Assembly: GCF_055900595.2 (NCBI RefSeq)
Contig: NZ_JBVWEU010000004.1
Origin: a plasmid
Length of the DNA stretch: 41,714 bases
Direction: 5' to 3' (one strand)
The position numbers and the translations under genes are program-made. Position 1 is the stretch's first letter. The number at the start of each line of letters is the position of its first letter. Of the stretch, positions 3,990 through 28,372 are shown piece by piece. The notes beneath the pieces were generated by a model that saw only the letters and a program-made list of their open reading frames with translations, did no database searches and was not told the origin of the DNA.

Positions 3990-5261
3990 TTACGCCAGTT
4001 TCGCTGAAGGAATATCTGACCATCGTGTCGTATAAGCAGGAGAAAGCATCTCCCGTTTCATCTGCCATTCCGGGGCAATACCCCGCCCCGCAAACCATAC
4101 TTTACCCAGCCCTGAGTTGTTGATCCCGTCCAGAACCTTCATCAGCTCAGCACTGTAAGGGCGTGGCGGGCGTTCGTCGAACAGCTGCAGCTGCGAAACG
4201 CCGGAGCCGGTGAAGTCATTCAGCATAACTCCGGCTTTGGCATACCGGTGCCCATCCCTCCAGATACGCTCCAGAGCCGTTGTAGCGGCTGCAATGATGT
4301 CCCTGGTGTCCTGAGTGGGTGTAAGAAGTTTTTCCGTAGCCACGTTGCCGTAGTAAGGCTCTTTAATGGCGAACGGAGACGTTTTGATGAAAACGGAAAT
4401 ATGCCGGCAATACTGGTGCTCTTTACGCAGTTTTTCAGAGGCCCGCTCTGCGTGCTGACAGATAGCCTGACGGAGTGACTCGTACTCCGTGATCTTCACG
4501 CCAAAACTGCGGCTGCAGACAATTTGCTGTTTCGTCGGAGGGGCTTCCTCAAGCGAAAGGCAGCTTTCCCCGTTCAGTTCCCGTACCGTTCGCTCAAGGA
4601 CCACAGAAAAATTTTTGCGGATGAAGGCCGGGTTCGTCAGGGCGAGATCGAGCGCGGTCTTAATGCCCAGTACATTCAGCTTGCGTGCAATACGGTTACC
4701 CACCCCCCAGATTTCTTCAACCGGCTGCAGTGAAAGCAGTTTCCGCGTTCTCTGCGGATTTCCCCTGGTCAGAGCAAGTACGCCACGAAACTGTTTCCAC
4801 TCTTTTGAGGCCCACTGGGCTGATTTTGCGAGGGTCTTCGTTGGTCCGGCGCCCACGCCAATGGTCAGGTGGGTACAGTCATACACGTGCTGACGCAGCT
4901 GCCGGCCGAAGTCCTCAAGCTCCATACAGTGCTCCACGCCGGTCAAATCGAGGAACATCTCATCAATTGAATACTGTTCCACTCTGGGGGCCAGTTCCTC
5001 CAGGCTGTTCATCACGCGCGCCAACATCGAGGCATAAAGTTCATAGTTACTTGAAAACGCATATATTTTTTCCGGGTATCTTTCGTTTTTTATCTGAAAC
5101 CACGGAGTTTCCATTTTGATCCAGGGCTTCGCCTCGGCACTGCGAGCGATTACATTCCCGTCGTTGTTGCTCAGGACGACTATCGGCTTTCCTTTCAAAT
5201 CCGGGCGGAAAACACGTTCACAGCTGGCATAGAAGCTGTTCACATCGGCCAGGGCAAACAT
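3990..5261 (-). CDS. umuC: Error-prone translesion polymerase subunit UmuC (Pol V catalytic subunit, Y-family)
   Basis: 423 aa; N-terminus [22 protein letters not shown] is typical of UmuC/MucB; start overlaps the umuD stop. Confidence 0.9.
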
Positions 5262-5692
5262 CAGTACATCTCCCTCGGGCGGTGGATGATATGCGTGACG
5301 ACGCCAAAGATATCCAGCTCGTCGGGATCAGGATAAATCGGCGACCAGGAGGCATTCATGGGCTGCAGCGTCAGTCGCGGCGTCAGCAGAAGCCGTTTCA
5401 CCGTAAACTCCCCCTGCATGCTGGCGACAACGATATCGCCGTGCCGCGGCTTTTCAGCACTGTCCACAACCAGCAGATCGCCATTGTACAGACTGCCGTC
5501 GGCCATGCTGTCTCCGCTGGCACGCAGGTAGTACGTCGCGCTCGGATGCCGTATGCAGTAATCATGGAGATCCAGATCGGACTCGACATAGTCAGCAGCA
5601 GGGCTGGGAAAACCGCAGCTGGCCAGATCGGCAAACAATGGATGGGCCTGTGGCGGGAGTTCTTTCCCGGTGCTGAAAAGTTGTAGTTTCAT
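5261..5692 (-). CDS. umuD: UmuD (S24 LexA-like self-cleaving protein, Pol V accessory subunit)
   Basis: 143 aa from MKLQLF; [12 protein letters not shown] and the GDSM Ser/Lys dyad region; Shine-Dalgarno AGGAGG upstream. The ORF track over-extends it to 270 aa. Confidence 0.85.
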
Positions 5693-5716
5693 CTTTCCTC
5701 CTGACACTCTAATTTT

Positions 5717-5734
5717 ACTGGTTATACATACAGT
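5717..5734. promoter_or_regulatory. LexA (SOS) box upstream of umuD
   Basis: ACTGGTTATACATACAGT contains CTG-N10-CAG matching the CTGT-N8-ACAG consensus, 25 bp upstream of the umuD start. Confidence 0.6.
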
Positions 5735-5739
5735 GCTCA

Positions 5740-7680
5740 CCGGGAGACCGGTAGAGATCAAGGGGTGAAAGTCCCCGACCATTGAAGGACCAGCAATCCA
5801 CAAGGTCCCCGAGTCATGCGTTGCATACCGCGAGGTATGGGGCGAAGCGTTGACAGGGGTGTTGACAGGCCAGCCATTGAGCCACGAAATGTATATTAAA
5901 TTACCGGGTGCCGACGTTGTACTGTTAACGGAAGGCAACATCATAGGGTGCGATACTGCGAGTGCCACATGGACCCGGCGGGGTCTGAGACCCTGGCATG
6001 TCAATACGATCTCTACGCGGGAACCGGGAGATCTCCCCTCTGACCATCTGCCAGTGTCGGAGACGGCCCGCACCGGGAAGACGAGGAGTCATAGCCGGTG
6101 ATGTACGGAGAGGAGAAGTCGGACTCGCTCATAGTAGCGGCGAAGCAGGCGAACAACCCGAAAGGAGCGGAGTCAGTGGAGCGAAGGAGCGGGGCCAAGG
6201 GGAACGCGGAACAGCCACACATGCGCCGGACACAGAGCCGGGAAAGCATGTCACAGAGGCTGTCACGCGTGCGGGAAGCTGCGAAGCAGCGGAAGAAAGA
6301 ACGGTTTACAGCATTGTTCCACCTGCTGACAGTCGAAGCACTGGAAGCCGCATTCCTCTCCCTGAGCAGGAAAGCGGCCGCCGGAGTGGATGGCATCAGG
6401 TGGATGGACTACGCCGGAAACATGAAGAACAACATAACAGATCTGCACCGGAGGCTACATTAGGGCAGCTACAGGGCGCAGCCCGGCAGGCGTCACTACA
6501 TCCCAAAAGCGGATGGAAAACAACGCCCGCTCGGCATCGCCTCGCTGGAGGACAAGATCGTCCAGTATGCGCTGGTGAAAATCCTGAACGCAGTCTATGA
6601 AAACGACTTTATGGGGTTCTCATACGGGTTCAGACCCGGGCGAAGCCAGCACGATGCACTGGACGCACTGGCCACAGGGCTGGTACGCACTAACGTAAAC
6701 TGGGTACTGGATGCCGACATCAGTCAGTTCTTCGACAGGGTGAGCCACGAATGGCTGATCAGGTTCACAGAGCATCGGATCGGCGACCGGAGCGTAATCA
6801 GGCTCATACGTAAGTGGCTCACAGCCGGGACGTTGGAGGAGGGTCAATGGCGAGCAACGGAGGAAGGCACCCCACAGGGTGCGGTCATCTCACCGCTGCT
6901 GGCAAACATATACCTCCACTACGTCTTCGATCTGTGGGCGCATCAGTGGCGACGTCGCTATGCCACAGGCAATGTGGTAATGGTCAGATACGCCGATGAC
7001 ATCGTCATCGGGTTCGACAAACGATACGATGCCCGGCGCTTCCGTATAGCCATGCAGCGCAGACTGAGGGAGTTCGGACTCACGGTTCACCCGGAGAAAA
7101 CCCGTCTGATGGAGTTCGGCCGCTTCGCTGCCGAAAACCGTGCCATCAGGGGAAAAGGCAAACCAGAAACGTTCAACTTCCTCGGGTTCACGCACATCAG
7201 CGGGAAAGATCGCAACGGCAGGTTCATGCTGATACGAAAGACCCGCCGGGATCGGATGACGGCAACTCTGAAAGCCATCAAAGACGGTCTGCGAAGGCGC
7301 TGGCATTACTCAATCCCCGAACAGGGAAAATGGCTCAGGAGAGTGGTTCAGGGATACCTGAACTATCACTCGGTACCGGGCAACTTCCCCACCATGCAGA
7401 AGTTCAGGACACACGTAACAAACCTCTGGCGCCGGGCGCTCAGGCGCAGGAGCCAGAAGGATGATACGACCTGGACGAAAGCAAACAAACTGGCAGCCGC
7501 ATGGCTACCAAGGGTTCGGGTTCTTCATCCATGGCCTGTGGAGCGGTTCACCGCCAGACACCCGAGGCAGGAGCCCGGTGCGTAAATCGCGCACGCCGGG
7601 ATCTGTGCGGGGGGTATCCGGTAACGGGTATCCCTACCGCGACATATTTAACAGCGTGACGATAATCCAGATCGCCTGCC
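5740..7680 (+). mobile_element. Group II intron remnant (maturase-encoding; 5' RNA domains probably truncated, 3' end abuts IS1)
   Basis: Reverse transcriptase/maturase ORF with structured GC-rich RNA-like sequence on both sides; only about 360 nt lie between the LexA box and the ORF start, less than a typical domain I-III. Confidence 0.6.
6098..7588 (+). pseudogene. Group II intron reverse transcriptase/maturase interrupted by an in-frame TAG at 6464-6466
   Basis: ORFs 6098-6463 and 6575-7585 are in the same frame; translation across the gap reads ...[38 protein letters not shown]..., i.e. one stop codon inside a contiguous RT domain; YADD motif present downstream. Confidence 0.75.
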
Positions 7681-7736
7681 GGATAATGGTGCCAACTTAC
7701 TGATTTAGTGTACGATGGTGTCTTTGAGGTGCTCCA

Positions 7737-8012
7737 GTGGCTTCCATCTCCATCAGTTGTCCCTCCTGCTCAGCTACTGAAGGCGTGGTGCGTAACGGTA
7801 AAAGTACTGCCGGACATCAGCGCTATCTCTGCTCTCACTGCCGTAAAACATGGCAGCTACAGTTCACTTACACCGCCTCTCAGCCCGGTACGCACCAGAA
7901 AATCATTGATATGGCCATGAATGGCGTTGGATGCCGGGCAACCGCCCGCATTATGGGCGTTGGCCTCAACACGATTTTACGTCACTTAAAAAACTCAGAC
8001 CGCAGTCGGTAA
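7737..8012 (+). CDS. insA: IS1 InsA
   Basis: 91 aa, [40 protein letters not shown] zinc-finger N-terminus. Confidence 0.9.
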
Positions 8013-8434
8013 CCTCACGCATACAACCGGGCAGTGACGTCATTGTCTGCGCGGAAATGGACGAACAGTGGGGCTACGTCGGGGCTAAATCACGTCAGCG
8101 CTGGTTATTTTACGCCTATGGCAGGATGTGCAGGACGGTGGTGGCACGCGTCTTTGGTGAGCGTACTCTGGCCACGCTGGAGCGTCTTCCGGGCCTGCTG
8201 TCGGCCTTTGAGGTCGTGGTATGGATGACGGATGGCTGGCCGCTTTATGAATCCCGCCTGAAGGGAGAACTGCACGTTATCAGCAAGCGATATACGCAGC
8301 GAATTGAGCGGCATAACCAGAATCTGAGGCAGCATCTGGCAAGGCTGGGCAGGAAGTCACTGTCGTTCTCAAAATCGGTGGCGCTGCATGACAAAGTCAT
8401 CGGGCATTATCTGAACATAAAACACTATCAGTAA
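7931..8434 (+). CDS. insB: IS1 InsB' frame (expressed as an InsAB' transposase fusion by -1 frameshift)
   Basis: 167-aa ORF overlapping the insA 3' end in the -1 frame, standard IS1 organisation. Confidence 0.8.
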
Positions 8435-8448
8435 GTTGGAGTCATTAC

Positions 8449-8752
8449 CAACCAGTTCACCACCTACTCGCTCCGCGATTGTGGCAGTCTTCGAAATCCC
8501 CGGACGATCCGCCTTTATGAAAGTCTTGCTCAATTCAAATCTTCAGGCTTATGGGTTACTACTCATGCTTGGTTAAATGACCGTTTCGTCTTACCGGAAT
8601 CCCAGCAGAAGAACTTGGCAGAGTTGAAACGATCTTTCCTTGATCCTGCACTCAAGCAGATAAATGAGAAAACACCTTTACTTGCTAAGTATAGTATTGA
8701 TGATTCAGGAAAATTTCTGTTCTCAATAATTGATAAGCAAAATCCCGTCTGA
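8449..8752 (+). pseudogene. 3' fragment (about 97 codons) of a second RepE-family rep gene, truncated by IS1
   Basis: Frame starting at 8462 translates ...TYSLRDCGSLRNPRTIRLYESLAQFKSSGLWVTTHAWLNDRFVLPESQQKNLAELKRSFLDPALKQINEKTPL..., paralogous to the C-terminus of the rep at 1-867; no start codon, begins at the IS1 end. Confidence 0.7.
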
Positions 8753-8799
8753 CATAAATCAGCACACATGAGCCTGTCATTTGACAAATTTTTGTCATG

Positions 8800-9160
8800 A
8801 AGATGGGCGGATTTCCACACAGCACCGGCGCCCGGTAAGGTGGGCGGATTCCCACACGGCACCGGCGCCCGGCAAGATGGGCGGATTTCCACACAGCACC
8901 GGCGCCCGGTAAGGTGGGCGGATTTCCACACAGCACCGGCGCCCGGCAAGGTGGGCGGATTCCCACACGGCACCGGCGCCCGGCAAGATGGGCGGATTTC
9001 CACACAGCACCGGCGCCCGGTAAGGTGGGCGGATTTCCACACAGCACCGGCGCCCGGCAAGGTGGGCGGATTCCCACACGGCACCGGCGCGCGGCAAGGT
9101 GGGCGGATTTCCACACGGCACCGGCGCCCGGCAAGGTGGGCCGATTCCCATATCGACATG
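8800..9160. repeat. About ten direct 37-bp iterons (GGGCGGATTTCCACACAGCACCGGCGCCCGG) of the disrupted second replicon
   Basis: Exact 37-bp periodicity from about 8801 to 9134, immediately downstream of the rep fragment. Confidence 0.8.
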
Positions 9161-9641
9161 TATGTAGCTTGTGTTATCTGTGGATTGTGCAGCTCAGCGG
9201 GTCGCTGGTCGTATGGCGGAGTGTCCCCCGTAACCGGCCGCGTGCGGCCGCTAACGCGCAGTACGGCGCCGCGTCCCGCAGACGGGCCGCCGTTCCCGCG
9301 CGCAGCACTGCGCACCCCCGTGGGGGACGTACGGCAGCTGCGTGGCGGTGAGCGGGATTAGGGCTTTGCAGCTACCGTGTTAAGTTCCCTGGTGTCGCTG
9401 AAATAGTTGATGAACATCCCCCTAAGCGTCAGCAGCAAGCTGCCGCCGCTTAGGCCCCGGAAATCACGCCCTTTACGTCGTAAACGCCGTAAAGCCCGCT
9501 CACCGGGGTTAAAAGGGATTACTTTGACTTCTTCATTGCTGTTCGCGAGTTAAGGCTAATCAGGGCAGGGGGTAGGGTGGCAGAATTTATAGCCCGGCAA
9601 CCGGCTACGCCGGGCTTTCGGCGCCATTTTACAACACAGAC

Positions 9642-27730: not shown

Positions 27731-27874
27731 GGCTTGTTATGACTGTTTTTTTGTACAGTCTATGCCTCGGGCATCCAAGCAGCAAGCGCGTTACGCCGTG
27801 GGTCGATGTTTGATGTTATGGAGCAGCAACGATGTTACGCAGCAGGGCAGACGCCCTAAAACAAAGTTAGCCAT

Positions 27875-28372
27875 ATGAACTCGGAATCAGTACGCATTTA
27901 TCTCGTTGCTGCGATGGGAGCCAATCGGGTTATTGGCAATGGTCCTAATATCCCCTGGAAAATTCCGGGTGAGCAGAAGATTTTTCGCAGACTCACTGAG
28001 GGAAAAGTCGTTGTCATGGGGCGAAAGACCTTTGAGTCTATCGGCAAGCCTCTACCGAACCGTCACACATTGGTAATCTCACGCCAAGCTAACTACCGCG
28101 CCACTGGCTGCGTAGTTGTTTCAACGCTGTCGCACGCTATCGCTTTGGCATCCGAACTCGGCAATGAACTCTACGTCGCGGGCGGAGCTGAGATATACAC
28201 TCTGGCACTACCTCACGCCCACGGCGTGTTTCTATCTGAGGTACATCAAACCTTCGAGGGTGACGCCTTCTTCCCAATGCTCAACGAAACAGAATTCGAG
28301 CTTGTCTCAACCGAAACCATTCAAGCTGTAATTCCGTACACCCACTCCGTTTATGCGCGTCGAAACGGCTAA
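27875..28372 (+). CDS. dfrA12: Trimethoprim-resistant dihydrofolate reductase, dfrA12-like
   Basis: 165 aa, MNSESVRIYLVAAMGANRVIGNGPNIPWKIPGEQ; first cassette after attI1. Confidence 0.9.
   Translation: MNSESVRIYLVAAMGANRVIGNGPNIPWKIPGEQKIFRRLTEGKVVVMGRKTFESIGKPLPNRHTLVISRQANYRATGCVVVSTLSHAIALASELGNELYVAGGAEIYTLALPHAHGVFLSEVHQTFEGDAFFPMLNETEFELVSTETIQAVIPYTHSVYARRNG

Follow-up and report, generated by a model that had tools for sequence, protein, structure and literature searches.

Complete but decayed copy of the group II intron Kl.pn.I5 in front of umuDC on an IncR-type plasmid, and the apparent homing of its family to LexA operators

Introduction

Group II introns of the Ll.LtrB type, on which targetrons are based, retrohome by means of RNA loops that pair with the target DNA to the left and right of the insertion point, and changed loops retarget the intron. 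Class C (IIC) introns, which lie after intrinsic terminators, and the IIC-attC introns of integron attC sites home to a generic, repeated palindromic signal and not to one gene (PMC3522654, PMC3001079). Here, we describe a copy of another group II intron, Kl.pn.I5, in a 41,714-nt stretch of plasmid DNA (contig NZ_JBVWEU010000004.1 of RefSeq assembly GCF_055900595.2; hereafter the window, numbered from its first letter), where it lies between the umuDC genes and a copy of IS1, and we compare its insertion site with those of other copies and of distant relatives, which are designated by L numbers.

Kl.pn.I5 is named in the Zimmerly group II intron database; it is about 1,910 nt long, its reference copy is on pK245, the prototype IncR plasmid, and further copies are present in a plasmid and the chromosome of Klebsiella pneumoniae MGH78578 (PMC3522654). 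Papers on IncR plasmids list it under the name retA as a backbone gene next to umuCD (PMC7707992, PMC12310702), and a review of these plasmids terms its reverse transcriptase (RT) "IIB class" (PMC12310702). The window element is the same element as the reference, in a decayed version with a TAG codon in the maturase gene and GCUCA at the 5' end.

A complete copy of Kl.pn.I5 in the umuD operator

The window has an IncR-type plasmid backbone with the order repB, parAB, umuC, umuD, intron, and IS1X3 (coordinates in Table 1). Intact copies of the intron, with an open reading frame (ORF) of 495 codons, occur on an Escherichia coli chromosome (L003), on plasmids (L004 and L006 to L008), and in dozens of prophages. 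They share their ends, all running from GTGCGCCGGGAG to CCCTACCGCGAC over 1,909 nt, which corresponds to window positions 5735 to 7643. An intron-free IncR-type plasmid (L002; NZ_CP018117) has the empty site ...TTATGCATACAGT|ATATTTAACAGCG (also given as ...CATACAGT|ATATTTAACAGCG), in which both window flanks are joined exactly, without target duplication. Precise insertion of this kind, combined with complementarity between the exon-binding sites (EBS) of the intron and the intron-binding sites (IBS) of its target, characterizes mobile group II introns. Judging from these sequence comparisons, the window element is very likely a full-length, inactivated copy of a mobile Kl.pn.I5 at a LexA operator, the homing site of its family.

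An earlier sequence-only reading of this locus had proposed a group II intron on the + strand that starts at the umuD LexA box, lies between umuDC and IS1, and replaces the native DNA upstream of the operator, and all of this stands. In addition to the match of Rfam model RF02005, the NCBIfam model TIGR04416 ("group II intron RT/maturase"; cut-off, 300) matches the uninterrupted ORF with 376 bits, and RVT_1 is the sole Pfam match of the protein encoded by this ORF; no endonuclease domain was detected in the same Pfam search. The reading was also right that a single TAG breaks the RT/maturase frame, as seen in the ORF list and in the RefSeq label of identical DNA (ltrA, group II intron reverse transcriptase/maturase, pseudogene, "internal stop"), but it placed this codon at 6464 to 6466, three bases downstream of its actual position (6461 to 6463).

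The same reading took the 5' RNA to be too short for domains I to III and the 3' end to be too short for domains V and VI. Neither view survives the comparison with intact homologs, in which no part proves to be missing: the boundaries and the 1,909-nt length are the same, and the RF02005 model is matched over its full length. The annotated ORF starts 363 nt from the 5' end of the intron, and relatives from several phyla with RTs 47 to 68% identical have about 359 to 367 nt in this segment; a short 5' RNA is therefore a trait of the clade. Since the TIGR04416 profile alignment begins only at RT residue 81, the true start codon is probably downstream of the annotated one and the 5' RNA probably longer than 363 nt. 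At the other end, covariance-model searches recovered domains I to IV (RF02005) and missed domains V and VI, which were recovered by comparative folding (RNAalifold, 13 relatives) with compensatory changes in 12 of the 28 predicted pairs. The ORF stop codon (7583 to 7585) lies inside the domain V loop, which explains why only 58 nt of RNA follow it. The 3' boundary (...CGAC) is likewise intact. Copies of the family have the group II boundaries 5' GUGYG and 3' AY, and the window allele departs from them at its 5' end, where three substitutions (GTGCG to GCTCA), missed by the sequence-only reading, alter the splice site.

The 5' junction of the intron, searched with a 100-nt probe, is present in 4,238 of 72,556 PLSDB plasmid records, mostly from Klebsiella. 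Complete E. coli genomes hold the intron at 342 places in 306 records (79 chromosomal).

LexA operators as insertion sites of the family

The LexA box of E. coli has the consensus TACTG(TA)5CAGTA. Copies of Kl.pn.I5 collected from IMG/VR (62 contigs), GTDB genomes, and E. coli records provided 56 distinct 30-nt 5' flanks, 53 of which end in an exact CTG-N10-CAG; the other three end in near-matches. Intact copies directly follow ...CTGT-N8-ACAGT. The flank logo, T-A-C-T-G-T-A-T-A-T-n-n-A-n-A-C-A-G-T|A-T (short form, TACTGTATAT..A.ACAGT|AT), is that of the E. coli LexA consensus, with the insertion point between positions 19 and 20 of the box. Genes beside occupied boxes encode UmuD-like proteins (phrog_811), DinI (phrog_189), SbmC (NF007451; 269 bits), a colicin E3-like protein (E value of 9e-144 to PDB 2b5u), and phrog_3893, a family of P2-type prophages. 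The occupied sites thus match the consensus and lie in promoters of SOS genes, as predicted LexA operators should.

Copies in unrelated contexts differ at 0 to 3 of 1,909 nt, which indicates recent spread and not one old insertion; we estimate that the flanks represent about 15 to 20 independent gene contexts. In 36 of the 56 flanks, a TTGAnn -35 hexamer is located 16 to 20 nt upstream of the box, and in the copies with this hexamer a Shine-Dalgarno sequence and ATG follow within about 20 nt after the intron; these introns are sense oriented and lie at the very start of an SOS transcript. The sense orientation is the commoner one; the opposite orientation was seen in the window copy, L003, and L010. 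Both orientations occur because the LexA box is palindromic. In all likelihood, then, the LexA operator is the normal homing site of the family, and the insertion in the window was a precise event at this target and not, as the sequence-only reading had it, an element wedged in by chance or rearrangement.

Under the mechanism that we propose, retrohoming, the intron RNA with its RT would have reverse-spliced into the LexA operator of umuDC immediately after position 19, on the strand antisense to umuD, and IS1X3 would be an unrelated insertion 38 bp further on. Sense-oriented copies elsewhere would be made only upon LexA cleavage and would be spliced out of the transcript without harm to the host gene. 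Two new insertions of Kl.pn.I5 were reported in a hospital outbreak study (10.1101/2021.03.02.433680), which, like the near-identical copies at many sites, points indirectly to current activity. The IBS consensus that Leclercq and Cordaux derived for Kl.pn.I5 is given without reference to LexA, a term absent from their main text (PMC3522654). The homing of the Kl.pn.I5 family to SOS operators looks new, and the window copy itself is ordinary and known.

Pairing of intron loops with the operator

The best intron/target complementarity found is that of the EBS1 loop with its adjacent delta-like position, which offers eight contiguous pairs across the insertion site. The candidate EBS2 loop is complementary to the (TA)n center of the LexA box, with seven pairs to TATACAT in the window. 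In the proposed retrohoming step, the EBS1/delta loop would pair with AACAGU|AU, the right half-site, and the second loop (AUGUAUAU) with the TA-rich center. An EBS2 directed against the left half-site was also considered and rejected: the only match in domain I is a 4-nt ACAG, which is too weak, and the TA-rich center pairs better with the second loop.

A second lineage in Actinobacteria

Two actinobacterial relatives (L090 and L094), whose RTs are about 54% identical to that of Kl.pn.I5, are located after ...ATATGTTCGCA. Scanning metagenomes with the 5' 18-mer of these two introns yielded further actinobacterial copies; most 18-mer matches were not introns and were discarded. The actinobacterial LexA motif has been described as tCGAAC-N4-GNNCGa (PMC9380542), and 14 of 15 distinct actinobacterial flanks carry GAAC-N4-GTTC directly before the intron, the box of L090 being degenerate. 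One further intron-like match (L121/L153) has an unrelated flank. Divergent genes within a few bases of these boxes encode DNA polymerase IV (dinB; 218 bits over a 115-aa fragment) and an Rv2578c-family radical S-adenosylmethionine (SAM) protein (290 bits, 200 aa), and the context of L094, upstream of leuS, is uninformative. In its homolog of the EBS1 loop, this lineage has UGCGAA or UGUGAA facing TTCGCA, and L132 has UGGGAA facing TTCCCA.

Operator homing would accordingly involve CTGT-N8-ACAG boxes in enterobacteria and CGAAC-N4-GTTCG boxes in actinobacteria and, on the flanks compared, is shared by two or more lineages within the clade but not by the clade as a whole. We lean toward a broader reading, with less assurance than for the homing site of Kl.pn.I5 itself, in which a compact, endonuclease-less intron clade homes to LexA operators, its EBS loops being retargeted to whatever SOS box the host phylum has; the expression of sense copies would be confined to times of DNA damage, when spread is favored by stalled forks, prophage induction, and conjugation.

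In four contexts (L126, L111, L148, and L132), a conserved protein of about 107 aa (MTSxGxPYxRFRRAL...) is the product of the gene that diverges from the SOS box with the intron. This protein has no family match and may represent an uncharacterized actinobacterial SOS gene.

Comparison with IIC and Ll.LtrB-type introns

Like IIC and IIC-attC introns, Kl.pn.I5 homes to a generic, repeated palindromic signal, and such signals give these introns many harmless intergenic sites on many replicons. In Kl.pn.I5, however, the signal is a repressor operator, and recognition would involve an extended EBS1/delta pairing and an EBS2-like pairing within the palindrome instead of a DNA hairpin and a short IBS1. 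IIC introns are inserted after a terminator or attC hairpin and use a short EBS1 and EBS3 without EBS2. Kl.pn.I5 does not follow this pattern, because its targets are LexA boxes, it is inserted inside the palindrome, and it shows EBS2-like complementarity, a distinction drawn from target and pairing. Its domain V carries an AGC triad.

The likeness to Ll.LtrB is that the choice of target would be explained mainly by RNA loop pairing. The differences are the endonuclease domain, none being detected in Kl.pn.I5, and the natural target, which is a multicopy regulatory motif. Priming in Kl.pn.I5 probably depends on replication forks.

Decay of the window copy and the umuDC promoter

Splicing of group II introns requires the conserved 5' GUGYG. 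Compared with the intact intron at the same umuD site (L006/L007), the window copy has eight differences, those listed being at 5736, 5737, 5739, 6064, 6461, 6793, and 6834. Three of the eight fall within the first 5 of 1,909 nt (P of about 1e-6 for a prespecified 5-nt window and about 2e-3 for any window). The nonsense codon results from a single C-to-T change in CAG, at Gln122 of the annotated ORF. Among IncR plasmids, L171 carries an intact intron, and L173 is an intermediate that has GTTCG at the 5' end, shares the changes at 6064, 6793, and 6834, and has no stop codon. The GTTCG allele is represented by NZ_OW970415, and the intact intron by NZ_CP018448. Decay in the IncR lineage proceeded in steps, from GUGCG to GUUCG together with three other substitutions and then to GCUCA together with the change of CAG to TAG. 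With both the 5' GUGYG and the maturase lost, the window allele should neither splice nor move.

The umuD operator keeps 19 native positions, and at position 20, where the empty site has an A, the intron begins; all DNA further upstream, in the umuD sense, is intron sequence, which might alter SOS-regulated expression of umuDC, as the sequence-only reading had suggested. Consensus scans of this upstream region revealed no clear umuD promoter in the empty, intact-intron, or window state. A sigma-70-like site (GTGGCA-17-TATGAT) inside the intron faces umuD (5968 to 5940, - strand), and a TTGATC hexamer is located on the antisense strand of the intron 5' end (5761 to 5756, - strand), 20 nt from the operator; TTGATC is the -35 element of many SOS promoters invaded by Kl.pn.I5. 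Judging by sequence, either of the two could drive umuDC.

Weighing of the alternatives

Several observations weigh against the reading of Kl.pn.I5 as a complete intron that recognizes LexA operators. Rfam model RF00029 (domain V/VI) gave no match at its gathering score or at an E value of ≤10, and domain V has a G opposite the A in the triad helix, typical of the clade, where most introns have a G-U pair; this G and the pentaloop of the clade are the likely reason for the missed match. The leftmost box positions, C-17 and T-16, are conserved yet lie outside the proposed RNA pairings, and protein recognition or postinsertion selection may contribute to the conservation of this half-site. No compensating EBS1 change was found for two targets with C at -1 (L036 and L043), and L119 has a TTCCCA target without the matching EBS1 change. 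No recognizable LexA box was found in the flanks of L076 to L079, L083, L096, L100, and others, several of which have uncertain 5' boundaries. Many prophage flanks are homologous promoters, so truly independent insertions number well below 56. In the open-access literature we found nothing that links group II introns to LexA or SOS boxes, and an earlier description may exist elsewhere.

The first alternative to a complete intron is a truncated remnant, with domains I to III partly gone and V and VI squeezed or missing, that rearrangements left between umuD and IS1. It draws on the short segments before the ORF and after its stop codon, the silence of the domain V/VI model, and the proximity of IS1, and it is very improbable given that mobile, intact copies have identical length and ends, that the precise empty site is known, and that distant relatives have the same compact layout. 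Domains V and VI are supported by covariation, with the stop codon placed in the domain V loop, the probably later ORF start would lengthen the 5' RNA, and the 3' end does not abut IS1, as the sequence-only reading had stated, but is separated from it by 38 nt of native flank (7644 to 7681). Hardly more credible is the view that retA is a domesticated maintenance gene of the IncR backbone and not a selfish intron. The gene is indeed listed as a "maintenance" gene of the backbone and is present in most IncR plasmids (PMC7707992), but in the window allele codon 122 is a stop and the splice site is broken, some IncR-type plasmids (L002) precisely lack the element, and the same element occupies dozens of other loci.

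The association with LexA boxes might also arise without target recognition, if a short IBS1 (ACAGT) sufficed and copies elsewhere were lost by selection, or if one ancestral insertion was copied along with its promoter. The frequent homology of prophage flanks, the incomplete explanation of the left half-site by RNA pairing, and the bias of the viral-contig sample to prophages all fit this account. We nevertheless consider it unlikely: the occupied boxes belong to unrelated genes (umuD, dinI, sbmC, a colicin E3-like gene, an S24 peptidase gene, and phrog_3893) on plasmids, chromosomes, and prophages, in both orientations; introns 0 to 3 nt apart have flanks that cannot be aligned; a bare ACAGT is far commoner than the full box, yet nearly all flanks (53 of 56) contain the complete CTG-N10-CAG; and the independent actinobacterial lineage does likewise with a different, host-specific box. 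A separate question is whether the substitutions at the 5' end were selected, rebuilding a -35-like element for umuDC after the intron had displaced the native upstream DNA. Seen from umuD, the changed bases are located 1 to 4 nt before the operator; they form the cluster of three substitutions described above, and the stepwise intermediate L173 exists; on the umuD strand, 17 nt before TAAAAT, the hexamer changes from GCGCAC to GCGAAC to GTGAGC, which raises its match to TTGACA from 1/6 to 2/6 to 3/6. Such selection is conceivable but doubtful, as the consensus scan shows no promoter at this hexamer in all three states, a -35 at this spacing is no better in the empty site, and silencing of the splice site by selection, or local templated mutation, would yield the same pattern.

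Further observations on the intron copies and the plasmid

IS1 is positioned in the intron-free L002 (NZ_CP018117, 2940 to 3100) as it is in the window, so the intron either came after IS1 or was precisely lost. The 270-aa ORF at 5261 to 6073 is a longer, GTG-start version of umuD in the same frame. Downstream of IS1 and after a truncated replication-initiator gene, the window has a run of direct repeats of about 37 bp (8800 to 9150; GGGCGGATTTCCACACAGCACCGGCGCCCGGTAAGGT-like), which look like iterons of a second, disrupted replicon. The sole exact CTGT-N8-ACAG in the window, a candidate LexA box at 27743 to 27758 (CTGTTTTTTTGTACAGT|CT), holds no intron; its center is T-rich rather than TA-rich, its +1 position is C, and it lies about 60 nt upstream of a match to the class 1 integron attI/AAC_AAD_leader (RF02912, 68.5 bits; 27820 to 27898).

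A viral contig (L029; IMGVR_UViG_2880021599_000003, 6088 to 11865) contains at least four head-to-tail intron copies with a period of 1,909 and no exon between them (...CCGCGAC|GTGCGCC...). Copy 1 is exactly L003, and copies 2 and 3 are 6 nt different. The occupied junction there, ACAGT|GT, resembles natural targets with G and T at +1 and +2 (L004 and L005), and the array could possibly have formed by repeated homing into an occupied site, the alternative being an assembly artifact. L068, a 7,999-nt metagenomic viral contig, has an SOS promoter of a P2-type prophage as its 5' flank and the plasmid umuD side (ATATTTAACAGCGTGACG...) as its 3' flank; either two copies of the intron have recombined or the assembly is chimeric across the repeat. 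Two further records, L071 (labeled Arthrobacter mobilis) and L103 (a 381-nt contig labeled Myxococcus), contain intron RT sequence 100% identical to that of the enterobacterial Kl.pn.I5 at the protein level. The L071 intron is 2 nt different from L003 and is followed by a colicin E3-like gene; both copies most likely represent contamination of these assemblies by enterobacterial plasmids.

Table 1. Positions of the intron, its parts, and its neighbors in the window
Feature	Position	Strand	Basis or remark
umuC-like Y-family DNA polymerase gene, 423 aa, intact	3990-5261	-	ORF list; annotated "Y-family DNA polymerase" in the identical record NZ_CP010149
umuD gene, 143 aa, intact	5261-5692	-	Annotated umuD, WP_000776034.1
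umuD LexA operator, TACTGGTTATACATACAGT + G; 5' exon target of the intron (IBS2/IBS1)	5716-5735	.	CTG-N10-CAG pattern at 5718-5733; empty site in L002, TACTGGTTATGCATACAGTA
Group II intron Kl.pn.I5 (IncR retA), complete, 1,909 nt	5735-7643	+ (antisense to umuD)	Boundaries match L003-L008 and prophage copies; empty site in L002
Mutated 5' splice site, GCTCA versus GTGCG; substitutions at 5736, 5737, and 5739	5735-5739	+	Comparison with intact copies and the IncR intermediate L173 (GTTCG)
Ribozyme domains, Rfam RF02005 (group-II-D1D4-6), full model 1-225	5768-5993	+	186.6 bits, E value of 7.4e-55; gathering score, 49
Candidate EBS2 (AUGUAUAU), internal loop	5889-5896	+	Complementarity scan; unpaired in the Rfam consensus structure; inferred
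EBS1 and adjacent delta-like position (GUACUGUU), hairpin loop	5919-5926	+	Complementary to AACAGU|AU (-6 to +2); loop in the Rfam structure
RT/maturase ORF, 495 codons in intact copies	6098-7585	+	Broken by TAG at 6461-6463; two more missense differences (6793, 6834)
Domain V: two helices, 2-nt AC bulge, AGC triad, pentaloop with the ORF stop codon	7570-7604	+	RNAalifold, 13 relatives; compensatory changes in 5/13 pairs
Domain VI with bulged UA; putative branch-point A at 7636, 7 nt before the 3' splice site (7643)	7606-7641	+	RNAalifold; compensatory changes in 7/15 pairs
Native 3' exon remnant, upstream of the umuD operator in the umuD sense, 38 nt	7644-7681	+	Identical in the intron-free L002; runs into the plasmid backbone in L006/L007
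IS1X3, 768 bp, separate insertion 38 bp from the intron	7682-8449	+	Annotated IS1-like element; terminal repeats seen; same place in the intron-free L002

Implications

The window element is a known, annotated, and dead intron, and retA on such plasmids is to be read as a decaying selfish element and not as a maintenance gene. If the family does home to LexA operators, this would explain the presence of Kl.pn.I5 beside umuDC, dinI, sbmC, colicin, and prophage SOS genes, and the operator of a transcription factor would join terminators and attC, the few generic homing sites listed so far. Kl.pn.I5 would then provide a natural case of damage-inducible intron expression, in which the stress regulon of the host is borrowed as both address and switch. 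Its insertions could rewire SOS genes, including those for the mutagenic polymerase V on resistance plasmids, and the host-matched boxes in two phyla would represent a natural experiment in intron retargeting.

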